Source: Flaccisagitta enflata (taxonomy: Eukaryota). From it: 64,000 nt of DNA. A program made the position numbers and the translations under genes. The stretch spans positions 23,684,001-23,748,000 of the forward strand of contig OZ231126.1 in the NCBI GenBank assembly GCA_965153355.1. The letters are read 5' to 3'. This document shows positions 3,268 through 64,000 of the stretch, in pieces. The notes beneath the pieces are model-generated. The model saw only the letters and a list, made by a program, of their open reading frames with translations. It searched no databases and was not told the DNA's origin. The first letter of the stretch is position 1. Each line of letters starts with the position of its first letter.

Positions 3268-3521
3268 TGTAGTTTGATGTTTCTGAAATGTTGTATTGAT
3301 TACTGTCTTTATGTTTAGAGTCTTTCATTTACACACATCTGTAACAATATGTAGGAGTTTGAAAATAAAGCTTGTATACGGGACTGTCTGTCACAATGTC
3401 ACAATGTCAATGCAATGATTTATGGGCACATCTTATATCCTATTCCGTGACTCTCGTTTTGTGTTAAATTTAATTCTTTTTTTATGTTAGCTCTTCTTTT
3501 TTTAACTTAGCTCAAAAATCA

Positions 3522-7608: not shown

Positions 7609-8760
7609 TAGTGCAAAGTAATGGATTAGAAAATGATTTTACTGAAAACTGAGTGATAAAATTCTAATGAAGGCCCTCACATGCATATCTTCAGCTAGCT
7701 GCGTTATTTCTTGTAAGAAAAAAAAAATCGTTGAGGGTGGCAAAAAAAAAGTGATTTCTATGTAAAATTGCATCAGGATTCCATTTTTGATGTTTTTAGG
7801 GCCCTACGAGGGGGCCCCTAGAAACGCACAAAAAAAAACAGCCAAAAATAGCCTATTTTGGCTATTTTTGTTGAAAATTTTTTGCTTTATGAGACCCCAA
7901 CCCCCAAATTTTTTTGGTGGTAATACTTCTTGATGTAAGAGACTGAAAAAAAAATGATCATGATGGTAAGTGATGGTTGGGGTACCTAAAAAGGCCCAAA
8001 AAGGGCCCGTAAAACATAGAAATATCACTTTTTTATTCATTGCGCGTCTAAAAATGCTTGGATTCCTACAAAATTTGAAATGGAACTTCTCATTTTATGC
8101 AACAATCTTCCTGCAAAGTTTTGTGGCCACTTTTGAACAGCTTCATGTTGAAATCATGCTCCAAAAAACAAAATTCGGCCAAAAAAACCCCAATTTTTGA
8201 GTATTCTTACATGAAAACACTATTTCAAGGTCCCTGAATCCATTTTTTTTTTGAAAATGGTTAGTCATGCATCTTGAGAGATCCCAGAAAAAATTTCAGC
8301 AGATATTTCCAAAAAATGGCCGAGTTATTACAGTTCAAAATGACCTGGTAAATGAAAAAAAAACACAATTTTGTAACTTCAAGGCTGTAAAACTGAAAAA
8401 TTATACTAAAAGTAGGGAAGTAAACGAAGAAATTTTTTTTTCTCCAAACCCCAAATGACCGGTATGAGTCGACGCAGTATTGCAAGGGCTTTCATTTGAT
8501 ACCTCATAACACACATTTTTTTGTATTTTATGTCGTTTTGACTAAAAAGTTGTAAAATCGCCCTATTGGTTGTTTCTGTCTACTTTTTCTTGATCACCGT
8601 CGCATTCTTCTTGGGCTAATCAATGAACAAGGTTAGCCAAAAAAGACCAAAAATGTTGTTTCTATTGGGAGGAATGGTAAAATGCCCATTTTTTAAAAAA
8701 AAAAGGCATTTAACACTATTAAAGCAATGATGAACAAATAATGGGAAAAGGCCCAACCAT

Positions 8761-11862: not shown

Positions 11863-14800
11863 TTTAAATGGTTTCTCCTGTATCTTAAAAGGTCCCAGAA
11901 AAAATTTAAGCAGATATTTTTAAAAAATGCTAGTACTGTTTAAAATGACCTGGTTAATGAAAAAAGTAAAGAGGCTGTTTGCATGAAAAATTCTACTAAG
12001 AGTAACTGGAAAAAAGTTAAATGTATTTAAAAATGCATGGTGAATCTATTTCAGATGGTTTAAGGGTCCTATAAGGGGGCCCCTAGAAACGCACTAAAAA
12101 GACTTTCCATAAATGGCCTGTTTTTGCTATATTTGGTAAAAAGAAATTTATCAATGAGACTCCAACCTTCTAAAATTTAAGGTAAGAATACTTCTTGATG
12201 AAAGAGACTGAAAAAAAGAATCATGATGGTAGGTGATGTTTGGGGTACCTGAAAGGCCCAAAAACGGGTGATAAAACAATGATACAAATTTCTTATTCAT
12301 TGTGCTTTAAAAATGCTTGGATTTCTTCAAAAAATTGAAATAGAACTTTGCATTTAATGCAAAAAGCTCACTGTTAATTTTTGGTTCCTTAATTGGAGTA
12401 TTTCATGAAAAAAAATAAAACCACAAAATTGCCCCCCCCCCCCACCTCTGTAAATTCAATTTTCATTTTCATTTAAACCAGTGTTATTTAAAAAATAGTT
12501 GTTCCTGCATATGAACAGTAAACAGAAAGATGATCAACTTTACAGCACCGGTATGACTCAGCCTGGACCACATGCTTAGAATCTTTAAGTGCACCAAAGC
12601 ATTTTTGATTCACTTACTGGCAAACAAAGAATACCATTTTCTTTTTTAAAACAGTTTCATTGTTTTTCATGTGGCCCTGGTGCCCAGGGGTGTCCGCGTG
12701 AAGGCACATACCGATTTCCCATATCAGGATGAGTCAGGTGAGTCACATGGTTCATCCTGATATGGACATTACACCCCCTCCTAGCTAGCTAAGCTAATAA
12801 GCAGGACTGTGGAGGTCAAAGTTGCTTATTTAAGATGTATCTTCCCTTTCTCGGACTATCATGAGTTTTTTATCCTTCATTTGTCATCAGAGGCCAATAA
12901 AACAAACAAATACGAATTTCTTATTCATTATGCTTTAAAAAATGCTTGGTTTCCTTAAAAAACTTGAAATAGAACTTGTCATTCAATGCGAATAGCTTCC
13001 TGTTGATTTTTAGTGCCTTAATTGGAGTGTTTCATGGAAAAAAAAAGAAATCTGTAAAATTCACCTCTCTCTCTCTCCCCCTTGTCACTCACCGCCCTCT
13101 TTCCATTTTTATCCCTCCCCCTGTTATGAGATTCCTTTGTGTCTGTATGGTTGTAACCCACTATATCAGACCCAAGAGTAATGGTTTTAGGGGCCCTTTT
13201 TGGGGCGAATTTTGTTTGAGCATAATTTTACCATGAAGCTGTTCAAAAGTGACCAAAAAATTTTGCAGGAATCTATTTACATGAAATGAGAATTTCCATT
13301 TCAAATTTTTTAGGAATCCAAGCATTTTCGGACGCGCAGTGAATAAAAAAATGATATCTTTATGTTTTACGGGCCCTTTTTGGGCCTTTTTAGGTACCCC
13401 AACCATCACCTACCATCATGATTCTCTTTCCATCAGTCTCTTACATCAAGAAGTATAGCCCAAAAAAATTTGGAAGGATTGGGTCTCTTTGAACAAGAAA
13501 TTTTTACAAAAAAAAGCCAAAATAGGTCATTTTTAGCTTTTTTTGGGGGGGTGTTTCCAGGGGCCCCCTTATAGAGCCCCCAAACCACCAGTAATGGATT
13601 CCCCATGCATTTTCTTTTTATTATGTCTATTTTCCAGGTACTTTTAGTATGATTTTTCAGTACTACAGCCTTGAAGTTACAAAATTGTGTTTTTTTTCAT
13701 TTACCAGGTCATTTTGAACCGTAATAACTCGGCCATTTTTTGGAAATATCTGCTGAAATTTTTTCTGGGATCTCCCAAGATGCATGACTAACCATTTTCA
13801 AAAAAAAAATTGGATTCAGGGACCTTGAAATAGTGTTTTCATGTAAGAAAACTCAAAAATTGGTTTTTTTTTGGTCGAATTTTGTTTTTTTTAGCATAAT
13901 TTCAACATGAAGCTGTTCAAAAGTGGCCACAAAACTTTGCAGGAAGCTTGTTGCATAAAATGAGAAGTTCCATTTCAAATTTTGTAGGAATCCAAGCATT
14001 TTTAGACGCGCAATGAATAAAAAAGTGATATTTTTATGTTTTACGGGCCCTTTTTGGGCCTTTTTAGGTACCCCAACCATCACTTACCATGATGATCATT
14101 TTTTTTTCAGTCTCTTACATCAAGAAGTATTACCACCAAAAAAATTTAGGGGTTGGGGTCTCATTAAGCAAAAAATTTTCAACAAAAATAGCCAAAATAG
14201 GCTATTTTTGGCTGTTTTTTTTTGTGCGTTTCTAGGGGCCCCCTCGTAGGGCCCTAAAAACATCAAAAATGGATTCCTGATGCAATTTTACATAGAAATC
14301 ACTTTTTTTTTGCCACCCTCAAAGATTTTTTTTTTTTTACATGCTAGCTGAAGATATGCATGTGAGGGAAGGTCCCATAAAAAACTCTTAATCTGCTTCA
14401 AGACAAACTTTTTTGCATTTCCGAGAACATGGCTTCCTTCCTACGGGTCTTTGGACGAGGGCCATGTTTTTCGTTTTTTGAATTTGTCATTCTTTATGCA
14501 AATTAAGAGTTTTCCGTGGGGTCTTATCTAGTGATAAAAACGAATTTTCTCCAGAAAATGTCTAATTTTTCGTAGTATATTGATACATTTTAACACTGTC
14601 TAAGTCATCCGATTTGAGCTTTCCGTGCAAATTCTTAGCAAGTGTAAGTGGACCCTTCAATGGAAATGTTTGATCGATTTTCCTATCGAGTGAAAAATTG
14701 GCTGCGGCAGTGAAAATAGCGAACATCTGGAAACCGTGTCTTGAGCCATCGGTTCTCAACTCTCAAGTGCCAGGTTACCAGTTCACAATAAGCGAGCGGG

Positions 14801-26980: not shown

Positions 26981-27169
26981 GCTATCTTTTCCATAGCTCT
27001 TTCACCTTCGCACATCCTCCCTCTACATCTCCAAAGTCCGAAAAATTCTGTGAGTTTTCACCCACGCCAACGCTCGCGCGCCCTCGCGGGTCTTCGCTTG
27101 AAATAACAAACCTCAGATAAAAAAAAGTATATTTCATTCTAACCTCGCCCACACACAACCACCCCACCG

Positions 27170-28352
27170 ATGTTAACCATGGCGACGATGAGCACGTATA
27201 ACGTGGACACGTTATTGTCGTCGCGTGGTGGCGGCGGCGGCGTCGGTGGCGTCCCAGGAGGCGGCGGCGGAGGCGGTGGAGGCGGCGTCGATAGCGCCAT
27301 CATGGACAAATTTAACGTCAACGGCGCCGTCAACGGAAGCGTTAACGGCGTCAACGAATATTCCGGCGCCTTGAATCATCACAATTCCAACGCCTACGGC
27401 GGTCATTGCAATTACCCTCCTCATTCGCAGCCGCTGCATCCCAGCGTTGGCGCCTCTCAACAGCAACAACAACAGCAACAGCAGCAGCAACAACAACAAC
27501 ATCCTCATCAGCCTCAATCGACGCCTCCCCATCAGCCTCACACCCCTTCGGGCTTACCCTCGGACATTACCAATGGGGGTGGTGCAAGTGGGAATGGTTC
27601 TCATAAGTATCACACAACGAACGGTTGGGGTAATCATCATCATCAATCGATGGGCACCCCCAATAACTCGGCCCCTTCCTCGTACTCTTGTCACGGCGCG
27701 GCTCTTTCAGCGTCCGCCGCCGCCGTGACTTCCAGCCCCCGATGCCCCAGCGTCGGATCGATGGGGGGAGCTCACGGAGGGGCCGGAGGAGCAGGAGGAG
27801 GAGGTGGCAGTGACTATTCCGCGTATCAGCCTCCAGGCGCCACCGGCGCCCCAGGAACGCCAAATGAAAACGATTACGTGAAAATGACGGTTTGCGCGGA
27901 CACTTACGGCGGACACATTCCGGGACACATCGGACAAGCGTCGCATCCGTACGGACATTCTCAACATCCATCGCAACAGCATCAGGCCGCCCAACAACAG
28001 CAACACTCGGCCGCCCAACAACATCAGTCTCAACAACAGCAACAACAACAGCAACAGCAAGGACATCCGAATCGGTGGTCGCCCCACCCGAATCAAACGC
28101 CCCCTCACGGTGGCGGCCACAGTCCAGTGTTGGGCAGTTCGTACTCGTCTCCTCAAAACCAGGGTCTCGGTATGCCGCATGACGGATTCTCTTCACAGGG
28201 GCATCCGGGCGCCATATCTTCCCAACATCAGGATCTTCCCAACAACCACAGTCCCATCCACAGCATCTCATCGTCTCAATGTTATAACAACGGCGGTCAT
28301 CAACAGTCCGGAGGACCGCCAACACCCTTCTATCCTTGGATGAGCTTAGCAG
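27170..28352 (+). CDS. Central-class Hox protein (Antp/Ubx/abd-A/Lox2/Lox4 group), coding exon 1
   Basis: Long ORF with N-terminal MSTYNVDTLL (resembles the Hox MSSYFVN motif; the true start may be the ATG at 27188), poly-G/Q/H tracts and PFYPWMSLAG hexapeptide. Donor AG|GTAAAT at 28352/28353 is phase 1 and joins in frame to 46386. Confidence 0.92.
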
Positions 28353-28434
28353 GTAAATCATTGTTAAAAACGTCTGGCTAGCTTACTGCTTGTGTTTTCT
28401 TACGCGTCTGCATGTGTGTGCGTGCGAGTGCATG

Positions 28435-37218: not shown

Positions 37219-37264
<46 letters not shown>

Positions 37265-38951
37265 TCTCTCTCTCTCTCTCTACTCTCTCGACGCCCCACT
37301 ACTTTAAAGTCTTCTTTTGAACTCTTTTGTAATCTCTTTTCAACGAGAGCCCTGGGAGTCGTTAAGCAGCGCCAAAAATATCCCAGCGGCAGAAAATCCA
37401 AACAGAGGAACATCATCATCAAAAGCCTCAACGAGAAATGATAACAGATTCGATGTAAAAGGGACAGTTACGAGTTCAAGGAGCGCCAGTGCCACACATG
37501 GCGCGGTTGAGGAGGAGGAAGAGGAGGAAGACGCAGAGGAGGAAGACGCAGAGGAGGATTGCCCACAGGGCCACGCAGAGCGAAGGGTCTTAAAATAAAT
37601 GGTGCGTTTTATTTGGTTTTAAAAGCCTCAAATGCGAAAGAGAGAAAGAATGAGAGAGATGCGATAAAATCAAAAGAACATGGATGCAGTTTTTGGCAAC
37701 GGTACAACTTGAAAGAGGATGCAGTTTTCGAAGGTTTGCTGCAGCGCAGGTTTGGCGTCGAAGTCTTGGAGATAAAATGGTTAATCTGTCCGTCGTTTTG
37801 TCGGTGATGTTTCCGTCAGGTAGTATTGGACTGTAGAATGCCACATGGGATATCGCTCATCAGATGAGGGTAGTGATTTTAAAACATACTTTTGATGCAA
37901 AAAAAAGGAAAAAATGAAAGAAAAAGAAAAATGCAACAAAGCATATGCAGCGCATATCCTTAGTGGTGCATCTTAAGAACGCATTGTGTTTGTGCAGGCC
38001 ACTGGATAAAGGAAAACGGTTATTTTGCCCGTGCTGCTTGTCCGGTGACTGTGGAGTTGAAGTTTAAGAAGAGAAGTACTTTCCGACAGCCGACCAAGCC
38101 AACCGACTAACAACCGACCGACCGACCGACCGACCGACCGACCAAGCCGACCGACAATCGACCCACTGAAAGCCGTCTCGCCCATAATCATTCTCGCAGA
38201 ACGCATAAAGTAAATGAAGCAACAAAATTCAGCGAGTCTCGTTTCGGTCCAATGAGTCGTGTTGTTTTTCTTGACCCCAGTCCATATATTTTCTTCGTAT
38301 ACAGAAACAGAGAAGAAGAAAAAGGATATGAGAGAGAAGAAAAAAAAAGGAGGATGGAAAAAATGATCTTTCATGTTTCAAGGACGAACAACTCAGTAAC
38401 TTAACAGTTTACATGCACATGACATGCCGCTTGGCTTATCAGTAAATGTGTCAGTATGTCGGTTACTGACTCGGTCAGACACCGTCAGTGCGTCGGGCGA
38501 TCGGAGACAGCAGTATTGCCATCAGAGAAATTCATACACTTAATCACAAGGATTGTGTATATTCAGAGCCTGCATTTGTAGCAGAGTGTAACTTAACTTG
38601 TTAGACTGCATCAGAGGTATTTCAATTTCTGCCGTAAGGCATTCACTCTGCTTTGATCATAGATGATAACACATTCTCGCATAACTAATCTTAAATTCAG
38701 ACTGTAAAAAAAGCAATGTAAAAATTAGCGAAACAACGGTTCAGGAAAGGGCGAGAATCAGAATGAAACGGAATCATGTTGCAGGCTGCAAATTGTTTTT
38801 AAGGGTGAAGAGGATGAAGTTGCGTCTCTTCGCCCGTTTTGCCCGTCCTTACCTCTGCATTTTTGTCTGTTGACCAATCTGTTTTCTGTCTTATGTCTTC
38901 TGTATTGTCTCATTTAATTTCATTTCACAGCATGCCGGTACGTTTCTTATT

Positions 38952-39020
<69 letters not shown>

Positions 39021-39027
39021 CTCCCTT

Positions 39028-41171
39028 CACTCTGTGCCGCTCCAATGTAAAGACTGCTTACAATTCCAACTATCCCAAAAGTTGGTTATCATTGCTCAGA
39101 ATGGTGGACAGGGACCAGACAAACATGAAACTAGAAAAAAAGAATACATTTGGGGGGTCAGGGGGTACCCAGGGGGCTATTTTGGGGTGATTTCATGGCC
39201 CGGCGACTAATATCATGAGTTTTAGAGCATTCAAGCTTATTTCTTTGGTCAGAGTGGTGAACAAGGACCAGACAAACATACAACTAGAAAAAAAAATACA
39301 TTTGGGGGGTCAGGGGGTCCCCAGGGGGTCCCCAGGGGGCTATTATGGGGCGATTTCATGGCCCGGCAATTAAAATCATTGAAAATCTTGATTTTTAGAG
39401 CATTCAAGCTTATTTCTTTGGTCAGAATGGTGGACAAGGACCAGACAAACATACAACTAAAAACAAAAATACATTTGGGGGTCCCCAGGGGATCCCCAGG
39501 GGACTATTATGGGGCGATTTCATGGCCCGGCAATCAAAATCATTGAAAATCTTGATTTTTTAGAGCATTCAAGATTATTTCTTTAATAAAAAGATTATGA
39601 ACAAGCGCCATCAAAGTAAACCTTAAGTAGTGAAATATATTCAAGGAGGTCTGGGGGCCCCAGGGAACTGTTTCTGGGGCCATTTTATGGCGCAGCAACC
39701 AAAAAACATCAAATCTAGATTTTTAGAGCATTTAAGCTTATGCTAATTAAAAATATTGTGCACAGGTATTTTAAAAATAAACATTTAATTCTTCTTCTTC
39801 CCTCTTCTTCTTCTTCTTCTTCTTCCATCTTCTTCATCTTCCCTCTTCTTCATCTTCCCTCTTCTTCTTCTACTTTTTCTTATCCTTCTTCTTCCTTCTT
39901 CTTCTTCTCCTTCTTCTTCCCTCTTCTTCTTGTTCCTTCTTCTCTTTCTTCCCTCTTCTTCTTCTTCTTCTTCTTCTTATTTCTCTCTTCTTACTCTCCT
40001 TCCTCTCCTTCTTCTTCTTTTCTTACTATTCCCTCTTTTTGATACCCTATGTTTTTTTTTTTTTTCATTTTCTACCTCTTTTTTCCCTTCTTTGTTCTTG
40101 TACACTTCTTCTTCTTCCTCCCTCTACTTCTTCCTCCTTCTTCTTCTTCCTCCCTCTTCTTCTCATTCTTCCTCTATTCCTTCCCTCATCCTCTTATTCC
40201 CTCTTCTATTTCTAGTGAAAACAGCATTTTTTTTAAGACAATGTGCCAATTTATGATACTCTGCTCTACACATTGCAGCTTCTTCTTCTTCTTCTTCTTC
40301 TTCTTCTTCTTCTTCTTCTTCTTCTTCTTCTTCTTCTTCTTCTTCCTTTTCTTCTTCTTCTTCTTCCTCTTTTTCTTTTATTTATAAACCCAACATTTGT
40401 TTTACTCTCCTTTTTCCTGATTTACTTGAACAATCAACATTTTATATATCGTCCTCCTCCTCCTCCTCCTCCTCCTCCTCTATCGCCTCCTCCTCCTCCT
40501 CCTCTACCCCCACCACAACAAGATATCTAATACAAAATTTATGTAGTGTTGCTATTCATCAAGGGGTTTCATGTTATTGTAATGAAAGCAAATCTAGTTA
40601 TTTAAGCGACTGAGAGAGAATTTTACTTCATTGGCCATATGAAATGAAGCTCTATATTTCGTTAAAAATGGCCGTAAAAAAAAGTATCGTCGAGTATCCG
40701 TCCCAATTTTTTTTGTGGAGCTTCCTAACTACCTAATTAATGAATGCATAAAAAGAAAAAGGGGGACAAAGGGGGTACCTGACCCCTAAAAATACAAAAA
40801 ATTGACCTCCTAGAGGGGTTTCACGTAGTTATTTCTTTGTTATTTACGTACTTTTGACGAAGTATAACTCCGCAAAAAATCACTTTCTGGCCAAAACAAA
40901 ATTAGTTTTAGCCAGCCCTAGGTGTCCTCTAACTACCCTTAAAATTTCAGCTGCTTTGGAGAAAGTCAGTTTTTTGCTCTTTTTCCCCCTCCTCCTCATT
41001 TTGGGTGGTTTGGGTGGTTTGGGTCGTTCCCGATATGCTGGGTCGCCCAAATTTTGGGTTTCTATTTTTTTGGTCCTAGATAGTATTCTGATTGAAAAAA
41101 CCAGATTGATTCCTCATTTTTAATACTATTTTTAACGATTTGGAATTTTGAGCAAAAAGAAGCACAAAGTG
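39028..41171. mobile_element. Non-autonomous Transib/RAG-like DNA transposon (2144 bp)
   Basis: CCCTT duplicated at 39023-39027 and 41172-41176 and single at the empty site in the duplicate contig (58283-58287). Termini CACTCTGTGC / GCACAAAGTG. About four 150-175-bp subterminal repeats (39096-39750) and a CTT-rich core. No transposase ORF. Confidence 0.75.
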
Positions 41172-41256
41172 CCCTTTCTCTCTCTTCCTGTACCTCTTTG
41201 AAGAGGAAAAGCGAGAAAATCAGCGTTAAGATCATTATCACGGACAGATGGGAGAA

Positions 41257-41361
<105 letters not shown>

Positions 41362-41466
41362 GAGAGAGTCAGAGTCAAAGTCAGTTGAGTCTCAAATGGA
41401 GATGCATTAAGCTTAATGTAGGCGGACAGGGGAGGCGATCTTGACTTTCTCTCTCTTTCTCTCACG

Positions 41467-41547
<81 letters not shown>

Positions 41548-42057
41548 TCTCTCTCTCTTTGATCTCTTGGGATTCACAGTCTAAATTATATGACGCAACC
41601 AACTAGCGTGAAGATATATCATCAAGGACTTGTAAGTCTCTTGAGCACTCGTCATCATGATATATATTCTAACAATGATAGGGAAGGGGGAATTTATGCT
41701 GCAGGGGGTCATGAGGATGTAATGTTTTTCATTATCTCGATAAAACAGGCTTATGATGTGCAAACAAAGATAACATGGTTTGCAAACAAAACATTCATCC
41801 ATCAATAATGGCATTTTGATGATTTGTAATGTCAGAAAATAAGTAACTATAACCGTAATTATAATGAGAATACTGTAAATAAGGAAAGCAGTGCCCAAGT
41901 AAAAGAACTTGAATAATACAATTGCTTGGAAAGTTGGCCAGTGAAACTTGACTTCTTGCCAAATCAATGGCTCATAACAACCGAAACTTTATTTCAAGTA
42001 AGAGCGTGGGACCGTCTAACACCACAAGATGTGAAAAATGTCGCTGGCTGTCTAATA

Positions 42058-42677
42058 GAGACCAGAACAGCGTAGGAACGGCGCAGTGGCCGACTGTCCA
42101 AAAGAGAGACCAGAACAGCGTAGGAACGGCGCAGTGTCCGACTGTCTGAAAGAGAGACCAGAACAGCGTAGGAACAGCGCAGTGGCCGACTATTTAAAAG
42201 AAAGACTAGAACAGCGTAAGAACGATGCAGTGGCTGACTATCTAAAAGAGAGACCAGAAGAGCATAAGAATGGTGCAGTGGCCGACTGTCTGAAAGAGAG
42301 ACCAGAACAGCGTAGGAACGGCGCAGTGGCCGACTGTTCAAAAGAGACCAGAACTGCGTAGGAACGGTGCAGTGGCCGACTATCTAAAAGAGAGACCAGA
42401 AGAGAGTAGGAACGGTGCAGTGGCCGACTGTCTGAAAGAGAGACCAGAACAGCGTAGGAACAGCGCAGTGTCCGACTGTCTGAAAGAGAGACCAGAACAG
42501 CGTAGGAACAGCGCAGTGGCCGACTATCTAAAAGAAAGACCAGAACTGCGTAGGAACGGTGCAGTGGCCGACTATCTAAAAGAGAGACCAGAAGAGAGTA
42601 GGAACGGTGCAGTGGCCGACTGTCTGAAAGAGAGACCAGAACAGCGTAGGAACGGCGCAGTGGCCGACTGTCTGAAC
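42058..42677. repeat. 48-bp minisatellite, ~13 copies
   Basis: Unit GAGACCAGAACAGCGTAGGAACGGCGCAGTGGCCGACTGTCTGAAAGA, head to tail; gives the 16-aa periodicity seen in the ORF track. Confidence 0.95.
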
Positions 42678-42864
42678 GGGACCAACGTCGAATTCGAATG
42701 AGAAGGCGGGAAGTCGAGTTTCATCGTCAGTTGAGTTTCATCATCGTCATCGTTCAGTTTCATCCTCGGTCTCAGACAGTCTGACTCTTTGCGAGGTTGA
42801 GAGAGAAAGAGACCGACAAAGTCAATTGTAAATGGGATCGCGTGTCATCGCTTCAATCGTCTAG

Positions 42865-43070
<206 letters not shown>

Positions 43071-43078
43071 ACATGATA

Positions 43079-43254
43079 CAGTGGAACCCTGCAATAACAG
43101 CCTCGTTTTTAAAGGTTCCCCATCAATAAAGGTCAACATTTTGAGGTCCAAAATGATAGTTTTTCATATGATTTCACCTCTCTTTAAAGGTTATCCTGAA
43201 ATAAAGGTGAAAAATCTTCAGTCCTAATGGGACCGATGAGGCGGGGTCCCACTG
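43079..43254. mobile_element. pogo/Tc1-type MITE (176 bp), absent from the duplicate copy
   Basis: TA TSD; TIRs CAGTGGAACCCTGC / GCGGGGTCCCACTG; empty site CATGATATTGTC at ~60127-60138. Confidence 0.9.
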
Positions 43255-43527
43255 TATTGTCTTCCGATCCTCTGAGCTCACCTTGAAAATATCAGCTAGT
43301 TTTAAGAATTGCATTTGAATGAACCATTTATTACTACGACTTTTCTTGTTGCTCACTATTTTCATTTTCGCATACTTTTGATGATGCTCCACTGACATGA
43401 AACGACCTTTCAATGAACAGTTGTGATGAAATCTTCCAGCTGTTTACTTCTAAGTAGTCGGTTGTAAAATAAAGCCAGTTCTTGAGATCTTAGTCGGGGT
43501 GAAATCGTATGAAATTTGGCGTAAAAA

Positions 43528-44603
43528 CGTCTGGGAGCGGGGGCGAAAGTATCTGAGAGTGTAGGCGAGAGTGTCTGAGAGCAGAGGCAAGAGTGTCTGA
43601 CAGTGTAGGCGAGAGTGTCTTAGTGTGTAGGCGAGAGTATCTGTGAGTGTTGGTGAGAGTATCTGAGATTGTAGGCGTGAGTGACTGAGAGCGAGGGCGA
43701 GAGTATCTGAGAGTGTAGGCGAGAGTATCTGAGAGTGTAGGCGAGAGTGTCTGAGAGCAGAGGCAAGAGTGTCTGACAGTGTAGGCGAGAGTGTCTTAGT
43801 GTGTAGGCGCGAGTATCTGTGAGTGTTGGTGAGAGTATCTGAGATTGTAGGCGTGAGTAACTGAGAGCGAGGGCGAGAGTATCTGAGAGTGTAGGCGAGA
43901 GCGTCTGAGAGCAGAGGCGAGAGTGTCTGAGAGTGTGGGCGAGAGTATGTGAGAGTGTAGGCGAGGGTATGTGAGAGTGTAGGCGAGAGTATCTGAGAGT
44001 GTAGGCGAGAGTATCTGAGAGAGTGGGTGCGAGTATCTGAGAGTGTAGGCAAGAGTATCTGAGAGTGTAGGTGAGCGTGTCTGAGAGCAGAGGCGAGAGT
44101 GTAGGCGAGAGTATGTGAGAGTGTAGGCGAAGGTATCTGAGAGTGTAGACGAGAGTATCTAAGAGTGTTTGTGAGAGTATCTGAGAGTGTAGGCGAGAGT
44201 ATCTGAGAGTGTAGGCGAGAGTGTCTGAGAGTGTGGTCGAGAGTATCTGAGAGTGTAGGCATGTGTAACTGAGAGTGAGGGCGAGAGTATCTGAGAGCGA
44301 GGGCAAGAGTATCTGAGAATGTAGGCGAGTGTCTGAGAGCAGAGATGAGAGTGTCTGAGAGTGTAGGTGAGAGTATGTGAGAGTAGGCGAGGGTGTGTAG
44401 GAGTGTAGGCAAGAGTATCTGAGAGTGTAGGCGAGAGTATCTCAGCGTGTGGGTGAGAGTATCTGAGAGTGTAGGCGAGAGTATCTGAGAGTGTAGGCGA
44501 GAGTATCTGAGAGTGTAGGCGAGTGTGTCTGAGAGCAGAGGCGAGAGTGTCTGAGAGTATAGGCGAGCGTGTCTGAGAGCATAGGCGAGAGTGTCTGAGA
44601 GCG
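43528..44603. repeat. 22-bp minisatellite (GAGAGTATCTGAGAGTGTAGGC)n
   Basis: ~1.07-kb degenerate array; a shorter counterpart lies at ~61846-62405. Confidence 0.95.
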
Positions 44604-44932
44604 ACTTCTTGCTGTTGAAGCATTTGGGTCGATACAATTTGAAATTCTCGTTTGATCCGTGACCGAAATAATTGACCCTGAATCTCGAAGGGCGATACGC
44701 ATTGTAAATGCTCTCTGTCTGTCGCCCCGCCTTCACACCACATCTGTCTGTCTGTCCGTCCGTCAGCCTGTCTGTCTGTTTTTCCGTGTACCAGTTTATT
44801 CGTCTGTCAGTCTATCCATTTGCAATCTGTTTCTTGGTCTTTGTATTTCTTTTTTTTCTGCTTTGTCTGTCTGTCTGTCTGTCTGTGTTTCTGTCTACCT
44901 GATGTAATTATCTCTTGGCCTGTCTGTGAGTC

Positions 44933-46124: not shown

Positions 46125-46385
46125 TATGCTATAGCTGCAATATGCAAATTAGGATACAGACGCTGACTTCACGGCTAAAGGTCATTGCTCTTAAACTTTT
46201 TCACACCGGAGACAAAACTCATGGCAGCATTAAGGGTTTGAGTGCATGTGACCAACTTTGGAGATGATAGAAGGACTGAAAATGTGAAATATGGCACCGA
46301 TTCATAGTTATCATTGCTTGATTGAGGATCTTATAATCATATTCTCTCTCTCTCTCTCTCTCTCACCAACCCGCCCATTCTCCAG

Positions 46386-46549
46386 GCGTGAACTCTCCTC
46401 GTAAGCGCGGTCGTCAGACATACACGCGATATCAGACGTTGGAGTTGGAGAAGGAGTTCCATTTCAATCGGTATTTGACGCGTCGGCGTCGAATTGAGAT
46501 GGCGCACGCGCTCTGCCTCACAGAAAGACAAATCAAGATTTGGTTCCAG
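46386..46549 (+). CDS. Central-class Hox protein, coding exon 2 (linker plus homeodomain residues 1-50)
   Basis: Acceptor ..CATTCTCCAG| after a pyrimidine tract; encodes (G)[54 protein letters not shown]; donor CAG|GTAAAT, phase 0. Confidence 0.97.
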
Positions 46550-46754
46550 GTAAATGTCATGGGAGGGAAGGGGTGGATTGGGGGTGCTTGAGTTGAGATA
46601 GGTTATTTTACTTGATAGGTGGTAATTTAGAGCTATTGTGTGTCACGATTCGGCAGCACGCGATAGGATCAGATTTTCTGCCAAATAACATTAGCCCAAG
46701 CTTCAGATACATCATTGGGTAATGGGTACGGATTTAATGGTTCAAAGACATTTA

Positions 46755-47165
46755 CTATACGAATTTTAAAAAAAGACTCACTTTTGAATGATTGATTTTG
46801 CCATTGAAAATCAAGAAAACTAATTAAGATCTTAGACCATTTTGAAGCCCTTGAAAACCTTTTTCATTTGGCGCCAATCTGGTATCTCTATCTTTTTTCG
46901 TTTGGAAATGGCATTGGTTTGAGTAAAAATGTTGCCAAATTTGTTTTTGCAGTCCCTTTGAAAAAGATGCAATTCAGCAAAATGGTGTCTCACTTTAGGA
47001 AGCTCCAGCACCTAAACCGTTAAAGATACAGATCTGGGATTGGTCTAGAATGAAAGATAATTTTCAAATCTTTAAAATTCTTATCTTTAATAAATTTTTT
47101 TAACACTTTTTTAGTATGCTTTATCAGCAAATCAAAAGGTGCGTCTCTTTTTTAAATTCGCGTAG
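46755..47165. mobile_element. TA-flanked MITE in Hox intron 2, termini related to the 45523 element
   Basis: TA|CTATACGAATTTTAAAAAAAGACTCACTTTTGA ... TCAAAAGGTGCGTCTCTTTTTTAAATTCGCGTAG|TA. Confidence 0.7.
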
Positions 47166-47371
47166 TATAACTACCCAGTGCACAGTTTCAGATCTTTTTT
47201 GTCACCTCCCCTATCCCTAAAGAGTTAAAAAAATTTTTTGAGTTTTTGTCAATAAGTATTATTACAACAGAATACACAAAAAATTGAACTCACATCTCAA
47301 TTGATAATATATCAAAAACAGTATAAATATGAAATTTACCGCTTACCGATTCATATGTTTTTTCTGGACAG

Positions 47372-47518
47372 AATCGTCGTATGAAGGAGAAGAAAGAAAA
47401 GCAGAAAATCGAAGAGATGAAAGTCGACGGAGTCTCGCCCAACAAAGACTCAAACAACAGCCTCAACAAACTCGACAATTCTCCAGAATCGGCTGATGGA
47501 GTCTGCTGCGAAGGCTGA
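47372..47518 (+). CDS. Central-class Hox protein, coding exon 3 (end of helix 3, UbdA-like parapeptide, C-terminus)
   Basis: Acceptor TTTTTTCTGGACAG|; encodes NRRMKEKKEKQKIEEMKVDGVSPNKDSNNSLNKLDNSPESADGVCCEG*, completing WFQ-NRRMK; TGA at 47516-47518. Confidence 0.95.
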   Translation, partial: NRRMKEKKEKQKIEEMKVDGVSPNKDSNNSLNKLDNSPESADGVCCEG

Positions 47519-55296: not shown

Positions 55297-56565
55297 CACC
55301 TCGAAATGGCATCAGAAGGAGACGGGGGAGAGGAAGAAGAAGAAGTTGAAGAAATACAAAGAAAAGAGAAAGAGGAAGAAGGAGAAGAAGATGAAGAAGA
55401 AGAAGAAGAAGAAGAAGAAGAAGAAGAAGAAGAAGAAGAAGAAGAAGAAGAAGAAGAAGAAGAAGAAGGACAAAGAAAAGAAATAGAGAAGGAGAAAGAA
55501 GATGAAGGAGAAGAGGATGGAAAAAATGAAGAAGAAGAAGTTAGAGCAATTAGAGAAAATCATTGAATGAAATACAGGCAAAGGAAAAGACGAAAGAAAG
55601 ATCAAAAGAAAGATAGAGTAAAAAGAAGAAGAAAAGAAACTATAAACATGAATTGAAAAAGAATAAAAAGAATATTTCTGTGAGAACTGGGAAGAGACTA
55701 CAAAAGCATCAAAAGAAAATTGACTCTCAAGAATAGAAACTTTCAAAGAACCCAACTTATGATATTTTTTCTCTTATTCATAAGATAATTTACAACTTTT
55801 ACACAAATAAAAATGCCGAATTGAAAGATGTAATACATCACGTAAGTCATTCATGAAATATAGCAAACCCGTGGGAGAAAATGATGGATGCACCAAGATC
55901 TATTCAGATAAGTTCACTGGTTGTCTCGTTTTGTAACTCATAATATGAGGCACAATTGTTTTGCTACACTCACAACACCGTCGCCACAGAACACATGCTC
56001 ACTCACACAACTTGCATGAAAGCAAGGCCGAAAAGTGAGTCAAACATGCAGTCCAGTTACCACTTTAATTTGACAGCCACGTTCAGGGCAGTCAGACGGA
56101 TCGTTCATCCTTCCCTACATACGTATATTATTCACATTTTAGTCGCGCACGCCGACTTCTATACCTGCTCATCCGTCACGACTCGGTACCGGGTTTTGTC
56201 GGTTGGTCGGTTGGTCTGTCCCCATTTTACTTTTTTATTTGTTTTATTCCTATGAAGTCATTCTAAGTCAATTAANNNNNNNNNNCTGTCTTAGCAAAAT
56301 ATGCGATACGTCTTCGTTCTCAGTTTTATCAAGTCGCGTGCACGCGCTTCTTCATATTCTGTCGTAGAGCGTTGACCATAATTGAACCCTGGATCGTCAT
56401 CTCCGTGCGCGCGACCATTTACACATGATCGTGTGATTCAACCAGTCAAACACAACGCAACTTTCTCTCTATCTGTCTTTCCCTTCTTTCTGTCTTTCCC
56501 TTCTTTTTTTCTTTCCTTCTTTGTGACTTTTTTTCTTTCGCAACACTTTACTCTTTCTTTCTTTT

Positions 56566-56608
<43 letters not shown>

Positions 56609-58221
56609 ACGCCCCACTACTTTAAAGTCTTCTTTTGAACTCTTTTGTAATCTCTTTTCAACGAGAGCCCTGGGAGTCGTTAAGCAGCGCCAAAAATATC
56701 CCAGCGGCAGAAAATCCAAACAGAGGAACATCATCATCAAAAGCCTCAACGAGAAATGATAACAGATTCGATGTAAAAGGGACAGTTACGAGTTCAAGGA
56801 GCGCCAGTGCCACACATGGCGCGGTTGAGGAGGAGGAAGAGGAGGAAGACGCAGAGGAGGATTGCCCACAGGGCCACGCAGAGCGAAGGGTCTTAAAATA
56901 AATGGTGCGTTTTATTTGGTTTTAAAAGCCTCAAATGCGAAAGAGAGAAAGAATGAGAGAGATGCGATAAAATCAAAAGAACATGGATGCAGTTTTTGGC
57001 AACGGTACAACTTGAAAGAGGATGCAGTTTTCGAAGGTTTGCTGCAGCGCAGGTTTGGCGTCGAAGTCTTGGAGATAAAATGGTTAATCTGTCCGTCGTT
57101 TTGTCGGTGATGTTTCCGTCAGGTAGTATTGGACGGTAGAATACCACATGGGATATCGCCCATCAGACGAGGGTAGTGATTTTAAAACATACTTTTGATG
57201 CAAAAAAAGAAAAAATGAAAGAAAAAGAAAAATGCAACAAAGCATATGCAGCGCATATCCTTAGTGGTGCATCTTAAGAACGCATTGTGTTTGTGCAGGC
57301 CACTGGATATTTTGCCCGTGCTGCTTGTCCGGTGACTGTGGAGTTGAAGTTTAAGAAGAGAAGTACTTTCCGACAGCCGACCAAGCCAACCGACTAACAA
57401 CCGACCGACCGACCGACCGACCGACCAAGCCGACCGACAATCGATCCACTGAAAGCCGTCTCGCCCATAATCATTCTCGCAGAACGCATAAAGTAAATGA
57501 AGCAACAAAATTCAGCGAGTCTCGTTTCGGTCCAATGAGTCGTGTTGTTTTTCTTGACCCCAGTCCATATATTTTCTTCGTATACAGAAACAGAGAAGAA
57601 GAAAAAGGATATGAGAGAGAAGAAAAAAAAAGGAGGATGGAAAAAATGATCTTTCATGTTTCAAGTACGAACAACTCAGTAACTTTACAGTTTACATGCA
57701 CATGACATGCCGCTTGGTCTATCAGTCCATTGATCAGTATGTCGGTTACTGACTCGGTCAGACACCGTCAGTGCGTCGGGCGATCGGAGACAGCAGTTTT
57801 GCCATCAGAAAAATTGATACACTTAATCACAGGGATTGTGCATATTCAGAGCCTGCATTTGTAGCACCATGTAACTTAACTTGTGAGGCTGCATCAGAGC
57901 TATTTCAATTTCTGCCGTATGGCATACACCCTGCTTCGATCATAGATGATAATGCATTCATAAATTCAGACTGGAAAAAAAAGTAATATAAAAATTAGCG
58001 AAACAACGGTTCAGGAAAGGGAGAGAAACAGAATGAAACGGAATCATGTTGCAGGCTGCAAATTTTTTTTAAGGGTGAAGAGGATGAAGGTGCGTCTCTT
58101 CGCCCGTTTTGCCCGTCCTTACTTCTGCATTTTTGTCTGTTGACCAATCTGTTTTCTGTCTTATGTCTTCTGTATTGTCTCATTTAATTTCATTTCACAG
58201 CATGCCAGTCCGTTTCTTATT

Positions 58222-58277
<56 letters not shown>

Positions 58278-58372
58278 CATCTCCCTTTCTTTCTCTTTTC
58301 CTGTACCTCTTTGAAGAGGAAAAGCGAGAAAATCAGCGTTAAGATCATTATCACGGACAGATGGGAGAAAGG

Positions 58373-58473
<101 letters not shown>

Positions 58474-58577
58474 AAGTGAGAGAGAGAGAGAGTCAGAGTG
58501 GAGTCAAAGTCTTGAGTCTCAAATGAGATGCATTGCTTAATGTCTGGACAGGGAGGCGATCTCTCTCTCTCTCTCTC

Positions 58578-58627
<50 letters not shown>

Positions 58628-59183
58628 TCTCTCTCTCTTTGATCTCTTGGGATTCACAGTCTAAATTATATGACGCAACCAACTTGCGTGGAGATATATC
58701 ATCAAGGACTTGTAAGTCTCTTGAGCACTCGTCATCATGATATATTCTAACAATGATAGGAAAGGGGGAATTTATGCTGCAGGGGGTCATGAGTATGTAA
58801 TGTTTTTCATTATCTCGATAAAACAGGCTAATGATGTGCAAACAAAGATAACATGGTTTGCAAAAAAAAAACATTCAACCATCAATAATGGCATTTTGAT
58901 GATTTGTAATGTCAGAAAATAAGTAACGATAACCGTAATTATAATGAGAATACTGTAGATAAGGAAAGCAGTACGTACCAAAGTAAAAGAACTTGAACAA
59001 TACAATTGCTTTGAAAGTTGGCCAGTGAAACTTGACTTTTTGCCAAATTAATGGCTCATTATAACCGAAACTTTATTTCAAGTAAGAGCTTGGGACCGTC
59101 TAACACCACAAAAAGTGAAAAATGTCGTTGGCTGTCTAATCGAGACCAGAAGAGCGTAGGAACGGCGCAGTGGCCGACTGTCT

Positions 59184-59666
59184 AACAGGTCGCCCAAGGG
59201 CAATATGTGGTCAGTGATACCCGTTGCCTTGCTTTGTATGGTTATGAATTGAAGTGAGGGGAAGCAGAGCAGCGGCCCCGAAGGAGACGAAGTCCTGTAG
59301 AACACAGGGGACTTTCGTTCGTTCGTTCGTTCGTCCGTCCGTTTATCCGTCTGCCCCCCCCCCCCCCCCAGGCCCTCTCAGGCCTGAAATCTGCCCTCTC
59401 ATGCCTTGAATCTGAGAGGTCAGATTTGCGGCATGAGAGGCCTGAGAGGGCAGATTCCGGCCTAAGAGGGCAGATTTTAGGCCAGAGAGGGCAGATTCAA
59501 GGCCTGAGAAGGCAGATTCAAGGCCTGAGAAGGCAGATTCAAGGCCTGAGAGGGTAGATTTCAGGCCTGAGAGGGCCTGGGGGGGGACAAATGGATGGAC
59601 GGATGCACAAACGAAAGTCCCCTGTGTTCTACAGGACTTTGTCTCCTTCAGGGCCGCTGCCCAAAA
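59184..59666 (-). mobile_element. Helentron-like family B copy inserted between two 48-bp repeat units
   Basis: AACAGGTCGCCCAAGGGCAAT...GGGCCGCTGCCCAAAA sits in the A-run of the 48-bp unit with no TSD; absent from 42058-42677. Confidence 0.8.
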
Positions 59667-59896
59667 GAGACCAGAAGAGCGTAGGAACGGTGCAGTGGCC
59701 GACTGTCTGAAAGGGACCAACGTCGAATTTCGAATGAGAAGGCGGGAAGTTGAGTTTCATCGTCAGTTGAGTTTCATCATCGTCATCGTTCAGTTTCATC
59801 CTCAGTCTCAGACAGTCTGACTCTGCGAGGTTGAGAGAGAAAGACCGACAAAGTCAATTGTAAATGGGATCGCGTGTCATCGCTTCAATCGTCTAG

Positions 59897-59994
<98 letters not shown>

Positions 59995-60001
59995 GGCAGA
60001 G

Positions 60002-60080
<79 letters not shown>

Positions 60081-60155
60081 TGTGTGTGTGTGTGTATGTG
60101 TGTGTGTGTGTGTGTGCGCGCGCGCGCATGATATTGTCTTCCGATCCCCTGTGCT

Positions 60156-61592
60156 CACTTGACGGTATGTTTTCCCCCTCATGTGCTCAAAACCCATGTA
60201 CCTGATCGTTTTTGATTGCTTTTATAATATCACTACCTAGAACTAAAGAGATTTGGGATTTTTTATCCATTTTAGGGACCGCGAGTTCCATTTATTTATC
60301 ACCACTCCAAGGTGGTTGTGGTGACATTGTTGAAATTTGGTCACTTTGGGCTAAAAATCGGGCCACTTTGGTTTGGAAATTTGACCCAAAATCTGTGAGA
60401 TTATGAAACTAGAGCTCAAAAGCTAACCAGTGGTGCAATCCGCATGTTGCTATCATTTTTTGTTAAGATTTGAGAGCTTTTCAAAGATGGAAGGGTATGA
60501 GGGTTATTTTACCAATTGAATTTGGTGGTCAATTTTGACATTTTTTGTAATTTTTGATATATTTCCGCTTTGGATGAACAAATCTGGATGAAATTGGTGA
60601 CCAAATTGAAGAGTTTTTGATACTCTAGATGAATCTGGTAAAATTTTGGATCGATATGACCCTCAAAATTTTTGGGAGACTCTACAAGCAGGTGCTAAAA
60701 AGTGATTTTTTTCGCCATTTTGGCTACTTTGGTCAAAAAATTTGGGCACTTCTGAGATAGAAAATGACAAAAAATCAGTGGGCAAATTAAACTACTGTTC
60801 AAGATCTAACCAATGGTGCAATCGGCATGTCAATAGGTTAAAGCATATAGATTTGGCAAAGCTTCAAAGATCAGTGGGTATAATAAAATGACATTTTTTG
60901 GTCATTATGAGCCTAAAAGCTCTGCCAAATCTATATGCTTCAACATATCGACATGCCGATTGCACCATTTGTTAGATCTTGAACAGTAGTTTAATTTGCC
61001 CACTGATTTTTTGTCATTTTCTATCTCGGAAGTGCCCAAATTTTTTGACCAAAGTAGCCAAAATGGCGAAAAAAATCACTTTTTAGCACCTGCTTCTAGA
61101 GTCTCCCAAAAATTTTGAGGGTCATATTGATCAAAAATTTTACCAGATTCAGTTAGAGCATCAAAAACTCTTCAATTTGGTCACCAATTTCATCCAGATT
61201 TGTCTATCCAAAGTGGAGATATAACAAAAAATGTAAAAAATGTCAAAATTGACCACTAAATTCAATTGGGAAAATAACCCTCATACCCTAATGATGGCAA
61301 CATGCGGATTGCACCACTGGTTAGCTCTTGAGCTCTAGTTTCGTAATCTCACAGATTTTGGGTCAAATTTCCAAACTTAAGTGGCCCAATTTTGAGCCCA
61401 AAGTGACCAATTTTCAACATTTTCACCACAACCACCTCGTTGTCGTGATAAATAAATGGAACTCGCGGTCCCTAAAATGGATCAAAAATCCCAAATCTCT
61501 TTAGTTCTAGGTAGTTATATTATAAAAGTAATCAAAAACGATCAGGTACATGGGTTTTGAGCACATGAGGGGGAAAACATACCGTCAAAGTG
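60156..61592. mobile_element. 1.43-kb palindromic (foldback) DNA element, absent from the first copy
   Basis: ~700-bp inverted arms (TTGACGGTATGTTTTCCCCCTCATGTGCTC.. / ..GAGCACATGAGGGGGAAAACATACCGTCAA) around a ~50-bp spacer at ~60865-60915; empty site TCTGAGCTCACCTTG at 43271-43285. Confidence 0.9.
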
Positions 61593-62548
61593 CTCACCTT
61601 GAAAATATCAGCTAGTTTTTAGGATTGCATTTGAATGAACCATTTATTACCACGACTTTTCTTGTTGCTCACTATTTTCATTTTCGCATACTTTTGATGA
61701 TGCTCCACCGACATGAAACGACCTTTCAATGGACAGTTGTGATGAAATCTTCCAGCTGTTTACTTCTAAGTAGTCGGTTGTAAAATAAAGCCAGTTCTTG
61801 AGATCTTAGTCGGGGTGAAATCGTATGAAATTTGGCGTAAAAACCTCTGAGAGCGTGGGCGAGAGTATATGAGAGTGTAGGCGAGAATGTCCGAGAGTGT
61901 AGGCGAGAGTATGTCAGAGTGTCGGCGAGAGTATCTGAGAGTGTAGGCGAGAGTATCCGAGAGTGTGCGTGAGAATATCTGAGAGTGTAGGCAAGAGTAT
62001 CTGAGAATGTAGGCGAGAGTGTCTGAGAGTGTGGGCAAGAGTATCTGAGAGTGTAGGCGTGAGTAACTGAGAGCGAGGGCGAGAGTATCTGAGAGTGAGG
62101 GCGAGAGTATTTGAGAGTGTAGGCGAGAGTGTCTGAGAGCAGAGGCGAGAGTGTCTGAGAGTGTAGGCGAGAGTATGTGAGAGTGTAGGCGAGAGTATGT
62201 AGGAGTGTAGGCAAGAGTATCTGAGAGTGTAGGCGAGAGTATCTGAGAGTGTGGGTGAGAGTATCTGAGAGTGTAGGCGAGAGTATCTGAGAGTGTAGGC
62301 GAGAGTATCTGATAGTGTAGGCGAGCGTGTCTGAGAGCAGAGGCGAGAGTGTCTTAGAGTATAGGCGAGCTTGTCTGAGAGCAGAGGCGAGAGTGTCTGG
62401 GAGCGACTTCTAGCTGTTGAAGCATTTGGGTCGATACAATTTCAAATTCTCGTTTGATCCGTGACCGAAATAATTGACCCTGAATCTCGAAGGGCGATAC
62501 GCATTGTAAATGCTCTCTGTCTGTCGCCCCGCCTTCACATCCGTCAGC

Positions 62549-62657
<109 letters not shown>

Positions 62658-64000
62658 CGTGATCCAGTTTATTTGTCTGTAAGGGTATCTGTATGCAATC
62701 GGTTTCTTTATCTCCATCTCCGTCTCGGTCTTAATTTCTGTCAGTCTTCGTTTTTCTTCATTCCCACCTCTCTCTGTCTATCTGTCTGTGTTTCTGTCTA
62801 CNNNNNNNNNNAGACCGCCAGTTAAATACTGAGTGGTACCACGCCCAGGTGCTGTTCAATTTAACTACCGGTACGCAGCATGGCGTGGAAAGCGCCGCCA
62901 TTCACTGAGGAGCGTATTCCACCATCACATCCTCATCCCATCGATGAACAGGCCGGCCAAGTCCAGGAAGCTGCTACCTACCGAGGGCGTGGAATGACGT
63001 CCGCCCAGGGCCTGGCGGCAACGCCCACGGCGGCATTCTCATGGTTTAGGAAGGGTTGAAGTTGAGTTTTTGTTGTAAAGTGAATCTGTGTACGATAAGA
63101 ACTTTACTAATCAATCTGCCCCTATTCTTTCTTTTTCCTTTGTCTTCCCCTAGAAGATTCCTCTCAGGCAGCTGCACCACCTGCACCTTCCGATGCGGTC
63201 TGCCGTTGACATGACATCATTCATAACCTTTCGCCACGAGTTGGCAGAGATATTTAAGAACCCCGGAATGACCTTTGTTCTCTATATTGAAAGCCACTTG
63301 AGTAAATATTAGTAGATCCATAATCTTACTAATTTTCTTTGTTTTTCCAGCAGTCTTTTTTATATAGTTAGTAATTTATTTAATTTTGTCTTGTTTTGTT
63401 TGGTTCCTTGGAGCATGTACATTTTTGTTGTGTTTGTTTTGTTATAGTGTTTAGTCATTGTACAGATACTTTCGTATGATATGTTTTTAGTAGTATGCCC
63501 CTACTTATTATTTTCCACTCTCAAGTCAAGTCCCAGGCTTGGAGTGCTCCAAGGCCCGTTCCCCCTTTCCCCCCTTTCCCCTTAACTTTTTACAGAACAT
63601 GCCTCAACCTCGTCGCCTCTCGTTTCCATCAGCGTCATCGTTGATGGGTGAAAAATTTGCTGGTGGCCAGATCCCTTTCCAGGCCGAGTCATCATTGATA
63701 CGGTCGCGTCGATCTGTTGATAGCAGGTGGGGATGGCGGTGGAGCCAGGGAGGCGAGGCTGTGTCTGTGTAAATTTTTTTAGGGAAAGGTATTATCGGTT
63801 TTTTAGTAGGGTTTCCCATGGAAGCTAGATGTCGGATTGCAAGTGACAGGAGGTATGGGGGCAGAATATTAGAAAATATATGTCCGTCCGTTTTATTAAG
63901 TATGTGTGCTTTTGTTTCTTTTGCGTGCTTTTGGCTTTTCTTCCTTTCCTTTTATTCAATGCCAGCGTCTTTTGTTTCTTGCCACTTTTTATATAAAACG

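Follow-up and report, generated by a model that had tools for sequence, protein, structure and literature searches.

An intron of a Hox gene in Flaccisagitta enflata, a marine planktonic animal, contains a 2144-bp insertion that raises two questions: to which kind of transposon it belongs, and whether the 10-bp difference in layout between its two ends means anything to the enzyme that would move it. The insertion lies at positions 39028-41171 of the window, by which we mean the whole stretch of 64,000 nt that was analysed (GCA_965153355.1, contig OZ231126.1, 23,684,001-23,748,000, forward strand). It is a real, non-autonomous, insertion-polymorphic, and recently active DNA transposon of a very abundant family. 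Together with the target site duplication (TSD), its ends point to the Transib superfamily, and their asymmetry is found throughout the copies of the family for which junctions are available.

Ends and target site of the element

The element starts with the tip CACTCTG and ends with CAAAGTG; its two outermost sequences are CACTCTGTGCCGCTCCAA... and ...GCACAAAGTG. Read inward, the left end is CACTCTG-TGCCGCTCCAATGTAAAGAC-TGCTTACAATTCCAA and the right end is CACTTTG-TGCTTCTTTT-TGCTCAAAATTCCAA. A first reading of this DNA from its letters only (the sequence-only reading hereafter) had given the TSD, the empty site, and the inward reading of both ends, and was correct in all of these letter for letter. 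The features in question are the following.

39023..39027, plus strand: left TSD copy, CCCTT, present as a single CCCTT at the unfilled site
39028..39045, plus strand: left terminal block CACTCTGTGCCGCTCCAA, consisting of the CAC heptamer and 11 bp, which translates as HSVPLQ and shares 11 of its 18 bases with the right end
39049..39060, plus strand: stretch of the left spacer that varies (codons K-D-C-L), of constant length and with a sequence that depends on the subfamily (KDCL, KGGL, YYGF)
39062..39069, plus strand: subterminal octamer AATTCCAA, common to both ends, in its left copy, which starts 34 nt from the tip and lies inside the 15-bp block 39055-39069
41140..41171, minus strand: right end, with the heptamer at 41165-41171
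41172..41176, plus strand: right TSD copy, CCCTT
58283..58287, plus strand: unfilled target site with a single CCCTT on the other haplotype

Each end is thus built from a terminal block and an inner block. The terminal blocks agree in 9 of their first 10 bases, and the inner 15-bp blocks are identical at 13 positions. The spacer between heptamer and inner block measures 20 bp on the left and 10 bp on the right, where the octamer AATTCCAA occupies 41140-41147 and lies 24 nt from the tip. When the two 60-bp ends were shuffled, an inner block with at least 13 of 15 identities arose by chance in 9 of 5000 trials, and random pairs of 60-mers drawn from the microsatellite-rich window produced one in 50 of 5000. 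The pattern CACTYTGTGC-N{5,20}-TGCTNANAATTCCAA, which describes both blocks, occurs at two sites in the 64 kb (0 in 100 shuffles); these are the two ends of the element, one on each strand. A short-word BLAST with both 60-bp ends and the whole element recovered only the element itself and its internal repeats, and hence no further copies in the window.

The Hox intron and its second haplotype

The element had been described as lying inside a Hox intron, and the exons on both sides bear this out. Upstream, an exon with the YPWM motif ends in ...FYPWMSLAG, followed by gtaaat, at ~28354 (in the open reading frame (ORF) 27143-28381). Downstream, the homeobox is split: the exon at 46337-46591 (Pfam Homeodomain, E 2.6e-17) stops at ...KIWFQ, followed by gt, and the remainder of the homeodomain, NRRMKEKKE, is found at ~47375. 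The element sits in an ~18-kb intron of an Antp-class Hox gene.

Both flanks of the element occur a second time in the window. The left flank (37263-39005) aligns to 56582-58275 with 94.7% identity over 1745 columns, and the right flank (41172-42098) aligns to 58283-59182 with 88.8% identity over 938 columns. The second occurrence is part of a separate contig in the assembly:

56286..62801, plus strand: contig between N gaps, 6.5 kb, collinear with 37263-44779 at 88-95% identity
56276-56285 and 62802-62811: runs of 10 N each, which bracket the contig carrying the unfilled site

Public contigs placed on 38300-41900 were used to check the polymorphism. In run X1, the left flank splits into two haplotypes that are covered about equally (depth 79 and 90), and the second has the 56-62 kb contig's alleles at 6/6 left-flank and 4/4 right-flank sites with an alternative letter. 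At 38533, 38585, and 38586, only the alleles of the 56-62 kb contig are found in run X3, which carries the same organism label as X1, and in the marine metagenomes X2 and X6; the differences are therefore allelic and not fixed between paralogues. Judged from these alignments and alleles, the segment 56286-62801 is probably a second allele (haplotig) that was scaffolded in tandem, with the Hox locus partly represented twice, and we take the insertion to be heterozygous. Among the contigs listed for the runs, none spans the unfilled site, the neighbouring CT microsatellite being skipped in contig placement. The earlier description of the element as polymorphic is upheld by the unfilled site on the other allele, and the haplotype alleles of X1 back it.

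An end asymmetry shared by an abundant family

In X1, the summed contig depth is ~50-170 in the flanks versus ~8,000-132,000 inside the element, a ~100- to 1000-fold difference which, as a sum and not a copy number, serves as evidence of abundance only. The contigs placed on the region number 1575 in X1, 798 in X3, 166 in X2, and 126 in X6.

As reading frames are open across both tips, ORFs that cross the tips could be used as queries against a large protein collection. The right-end query retrieved P0004, in which 35/36 residues are identical up to the tip and the flank differs; among 1.84 billion representative proteins, the 36 right-end residues yielded P0004 and two weak unrelated rows only. 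The left-end query retrieved four cluster representatives with eight further members. Ten of these 12 ORFs reach the tip (the other two start inside), and all ten begin their similarity at H-S-V-P-L-Q, where H is encoded by the terminal CAC. The residues that precede the tip are LP, KV, TI, ES, LL, HW, LL, and HF, compared with SL in the window. ES was seen twice, probably from one locus, and one of the LL flanks was also seen twice and differs upstream from the other LL. Because the residues preceding the tip differ, eight independent left junctions are available besides that of the window.

None of the tip-reaching ORFs has a gap between the left tip and the inner block, so that all of them have the long form. 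Three other right ends are known, namely P0004 and one contig each from X6 and X2, and all three have the short form. The X6 contig, 675 nt in length, matches 40530-41175 gap-free with 9 mismatches before it continues into unrelated sequence, and the X2 contig similarly extends past the right tip, onward from 41176. The flanks of both right junctions are absent from the window when up to 3 mismatches are allowed. With the long form at 8/8 left junctions and the short form at 3/3 right ends, the 10-bp offset is a trait of the family. A private indel of the window's copy, which the sequence-only reading had named among the findings that would speak against its case, is excluded by the same junctions in other copies; the asymmetry is common to the family.

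The variation among the copies is unevenly distributed. In an alignment of 13 sequences (A1), variation is seen in columns 78-81, with P74-Q76 and F83-T105 invariant. QFQLSQKL, which corresponds to the inner block, is invariant or nearly so in all 13 sequences, and so is the 18-bp tip. The four spacer codons at 39049-39060 differ among three subfamilies without any change in spacer length. From these alignments, the spacer behaves as if it were constrained in length and free in sequence.

Searches elsewhere returned nothing related. The two-block pattern had 0 matches in viral contigs. In metagenome contigs, a relaxed form of the pattern was found at 86 loci, none of which is similar to the element by BLASTN; 72 of them represent one recurrent 42-mer in two variants, and many of the contigs are labelled as human gut metagenome. 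In prokaryote genome contigs the pattern was matched four times by chance; the spacers measured 11-17 bp, and a spacer of 10 or 20 bp did not occur.

Assignment to a superfamily and proposed mechanism

The comparisons that follow draw on excerpts of the cited papers and extend as far as these excerpts do. There, Transib is described as the only eukaryotic DNA-transposon superfamily with 5-bp duplications, and the consensus of its terminal inverted repeats (TIRs) consists of CACAATG, a 23-bp variable spacer, and the nonamer AAAAAAATC (PMC1131882). Ends resembling the recombination signal sequences (RSSs) of the 12/23 type, RSS12-like at the 5' and RSS23-like at the 3' side, were reported by Kapitonov and Jurka 2005 for Transib5, Transib2_AG, and TransibN1-3_AG, and some Transib families have strong target preferences (PMC1131882).

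The element fits the Transib superfamily because it combines a 5-bp duplication with CAC termini and a bipartite end. Its heptamers CACTCTG and CACTTTG each match the Transib CACAATG at 5/7 positions. Placed in the Transib registration, the element has heptamer-23-TTACAATTC at its left end and heptamer-13-TCAAAATTC at its right; the two nonamers match AAAAAAATC at 5/9 (left) and 6/9 (right) positions, and both have A at positions 5 and 6. As to the preference for GC-rich targets, which is a trait of Transib, the target in the window (CCCTT) is 3/5 G+C and adjoins a CT microsatellite, and the flanks of the left-junction ORFs are known as two residues each.

We propose that a DDE transposase of the RAG1-core type, encoded elsewhere in the genome, would move the element in trans. 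The enzyme would recognise the terminal CAC-heptamer block together with the subterminal block containing AATTCCAA, whose distance from the tip is greater by one helical turn (10 bp) on the left than on the right. Excision would take place at the CAC/GTG tips, and reinsertion with a 5-bp stagger would have produced the CCCTT duplication in the Hox intron on one of the two haplotypes. Both the family of the transposase and any functional role of the asymmetry are what we infer. On balance, we consider it probable, if well short of certain, that the element represents a very abundant non-autonomous cut-and-paste family which belongs to the Transib superfamily, broadly taken (Transib or RAG-like), and moves by this mechanism.

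The Transib- or RAG-like assignment had already been made in the sequence-only reading, and it is supported to the extent that the 5-bp duplication and the CAC termini are the published Transib signature. Its further suggestion that the one-turn/two-turn asymmetry might be a new rule was overstated, since such ends were published for Transib in 2005 and are also in print for RAG-like transposons. The long/short end design being already in print, the family adds an example and not a new principle.

The closest known counterparts are the asymmetric Transib families, i.e., Transib5 of Drosophila melanogaster and Transib2_AG and TransibN1-N3_AG of Anopheles gambiae. Like the element, they make a 5-bp duplication and have ends in which a CAC heptamer is followed by a variable spacer and another conserved block, with one end about a helical turn shorter than the other, and they are non-coding and moved in trans, as would be the case for the element. 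In contrast, their hosts are insects, whereas the host of the element is a planktonic animal of the sea; their nonamer is the A-rich AAAAAAATC, whereas the element has TTACAATTC and TCAAAATTC; and the element, at 2.1 kb, has an interior made up of a tandem array and microsatellites.

The 12/23 RSSs share with the element the CAC-led heptamer, a variable spacer of fixed length, A at positions 5 and 6 of the inner block, and two spacer classes that are one turn apart, which measure 12+/-1 and 23+/-1 bp in the RSS type and 13 and 23 bp in the element under one of the possible registrations. The resemblance is one of layout: the heptamers of the element match CACAGTG at 5/7 positions, its nonamers match ACAAAAACC at 4/9 and 6/9, and the element carries the end of a mobile element and not a domesticated signal.

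Several observations weigh against the Transib assignment and the proposed mechanism. The evidence from the left ends is protein-level and comes from short ORFs called on public assemblies. The 5-bp duplication is documented in one copy, the other copies being seen on one side only. Two of the three other right junctions (X2 and X6) continue with CCCTT or CCCT, like the window; the right flank of P0004 back-translates to ARCAN, and 0 of the 8 other left junctions are compatible with CCCTT. The recurrence of CCCT(T) at right junctions leaves room, with a small probability, for insertion that favours certain targets or follows another chemistry. The nonamer match of 5/9 and 6/9 is weak, and the 13/23 registration was chosen after the sequence had been seen. 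Furthermore, the stretch adjoining the heptamer is not A-rich, unlike the TR2 of RAG-like elements as described in the excerpts. Finally, the spacers measure 20/10 by the blocks of the sequence-only reading, 27/17 when counted to AATTCCAA, and 23/13 in the Transib registration. Important to note here is that only the absolute lengths depend on the placement of the nonamer; the 10-bp spacer difference is robust and independent of the registration.

Alternative explanations

The first alternative accepts the same family and the same mobility, and sees in the 10-bp asymmetry a functionless relic of a founder indel in one spacer that was inherited by all descendants. The transposase would then read mainly the terminal 15-18 bp and tolerate the spacer difference. 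In favour of this, invertebrate RAG-like enzymes are argued to rely on the terminal 15-17 bp and to show comparatively little sensitivity to TIR asymmetry (PMC7204232, in the part excerpted). The terminal 18 bp are also the best-conserved part of the left end, and all copies seen are close relatives, in which a shared length could be due to inheritance. However, four consecutive spacer codons were changed in three subfamilies while length and inner block were kept, which is the pattern expected under constrained spacing, and the offset amounts to one helical turn of 10 bp, which is also what the excerpted literature describes for asymmetric ends of Transib and RAGL-A. We regard a functionless asymmetry as possible without being likely.

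Under the second alternative, the element would belong to another or an undescribed superfamily, either as a relative of CACTA, Mirage, or Chapaev elements whose duplication length is unusual or as a product of site-specific recombination at a CCCTT-like core. In the latter case, the flanking CCCTT pair would be a crossover site and not the duplication left by a staggered cut. The tips of the element begin with CACT, as they do in CACTA elements, and there is subterminal structure at the ends as in CACTA, Mirage, and Chapaev elements. CACTA, Mirage, and Chapaev elements make duplications of 2-4 bp, and the element, with its duplication of 5 bp, differs from them in this respect. The documentation of the duplication in a single copy and the CCCT(T) continuation at 2/3 other right junctions speak for this alternative. 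Since the flanks at the eight other left junctions are unrelated to it and P0004 has ARCAN on its right side, CCCTT does not belong to the element itself, nor is it a target that insertion requires. Moreover, inverted ends made of two blocks are typical of DDE transposons. Altogether, an origin outside of the Transib superfamily appears improbable.

A third alternative keeps the cut-and-paste chemistry and changes the parent, making the element a non-autonomous derivative of a RAG1-like/RAG2-like (ProtoRAG-type) transposon instead of a plain Transib. The 5-bp duplication and the CAC heptamer are the same signature in both. In hemichordates, the ends of RAGL-A have a heptamer and next to it a conserved block, followed by a spacer whose length is asymmetric by 10 bp and by a nonamer-like block, and an asymmetry in TIR length is known in both RAGL families and Transib (excerpts of bioRxiv 10.1101/2023.08.20.553239). 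The conserved 18-bp tip, variable spacer, and conserved inner block of the element family resemble this layout. RAGL-A of Ptychodera flava (as excerpted from the same preprint) thus shares with the element the 5-bp duplication, the heptamer with its conserved adjacent block, the 10-bp spacer asymmetry, and the nonamer-like block. In contrast to the element, which is gene-less in the copy studied and has an adjacent block that is not A-rich, RAGL-A carries RAG1L and RAG2L genes and an A-rich TR2. RAG-like transposons are characterised by a RAG1-like and a RAG2-like gene in convergent orientation between the TIRs. Where the excerpts place an A-rich TR2 of 9-10 bp directly behind the heptamer, the element has TGCCGCTCCAA (left end) and TGCTTCTTTTT (right end). 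The host phylum bears on the choice between a Transib and a RAG-like parent, and the leads to it are weak: exon 1 of the Hox gene retrieved one unnamed protein at 75% identity, and a protein atlas gave hits at 0.90-0.91 to two unnamed clusters, with Mollusca as the commonest phylum in one and Arthropoda in the other, and to Antennapedia fragments of arthropods. As to host range, the excerpted part of PMC7204232 counts arthropods with the taxa that lack RAG-like sequences. A RAG-like parent of this type is, in our view, quite improbable.

Long terminal repeat (LTR) retrotransposons and their solo LTRs also have 5-bp duplications, with termini of the form 5'-TG...CA-3'; a solo LTR is ruled out here by the termini, as the element starts with CA, ends with TG, and has two-block inverted ends of ~32-42 bp.

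Possible relation to the 12/23 pairing rule

How the 12/23 rule originated is debated, with asymmetric signals being derived either from Transib or from a RAG-like transposon (excerpts of bioRxiv 10.1101/2023.08.20.553239 and of a 2021 review). The 2021 review builds its hypothesis on the asymmetric ends of Transib, of which few families are cited. The family described here adds one that is abundant and still polymorphic, and in which the asymmetry has been kept through the divergence of subfamilies while the spacer sequence drifts. Its end may be of a hybrid kind (heptamer, conserved adjacent block, length-constrained spacer, and nonamer-like block), which in the excerpted literature is so far described only for hemichordate RAGL-A.

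The most far-reaching reading of this hybrid end is that the transposase needs one long and one short end, i.e., that a pairing rule of the 12/23 type operates on an element that is still jumping in a possibly protostome planktonic animal. We hold this reading, the hybrid end included, to be a long shot. If it were true, hundreds of natural substrates would be at hand for dating the origin of the rule, and if the partner transposase were found, the family would be a useful natural test set.

Interior of the element

Between its ends, the element is composed of three parts:

39089..39741, plus strand: tandem array with units of ~164-173 bp, ~3.5 units, of which the contigs of other copies skip or repeat units
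39786..40521, plus strand: microsatellite tract of the TTC/TCC type, the repeats of which are skipped in contig placement
40522..41139, plus strand: unique right-hand internal part, over which the summed depth in run X1 is 20,000-54,000

Pfam returned 0 families for the six ORFs tested that lie inside or overlap the element, including 0 for the ORFs 40806-41123, 40880-41113, and 40530-40613 of the unique right-hand part. As judged from its ORFs, the copy at 39028-41171 appears to encode nothing recognisable.

Further insertions and neighbouring features

The two Hox intron haplotypes differ by several recent transposon insertions. The other haplotype has an insertion of its own at 60159-61589 (~1431 bp), the long ends of which are inverted (TTGACGGTATGTTTTCCCCC... 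and the reverse complement of this). A copy of GTGCTCAC adjoins the insertion on either side, and the first haplotype has a single GAGCTCAC near 43262-43269. This layout suggests a polymorphic element of the long-TIR or foldback type whose duplication is 8 bp. In the first haplotype, a 176-bp element at 43079-43254 begins with CAGTGGAACCC, ends with GGGTCCCACTG, and has TA on both flanks; it is absent from the other haplotype near 60130, which reads CATGATA directly followed by TTGTCTTCC. This one looks like a polymorphic miniature element of the Tc1/mariner type. Minisatellite arrays at 43450-44811 and 61726-62600, in which one frame is open for up to 453 codons, also differ in length between the haplotypes.

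The homeobox of the Hox gene is interrupted by an intron at 46589-47375, between ...KIWFQ and NRRMKEKKE. This is an unusual position, which might help to place the host.

Outside of the Hox gene, two inverted arms of 704 bp at 7712-8414 and 13639-14341 are 96.9% identical and lie ~5.2 kb apart; possibly a large element has its long TIRs here. The minus strand of 1-3324 carries remnants of a retroelement gag, with weak matches to zf-CCHC_5, PNMA, and DUF1759 that are all below the Pfam cut-offs.

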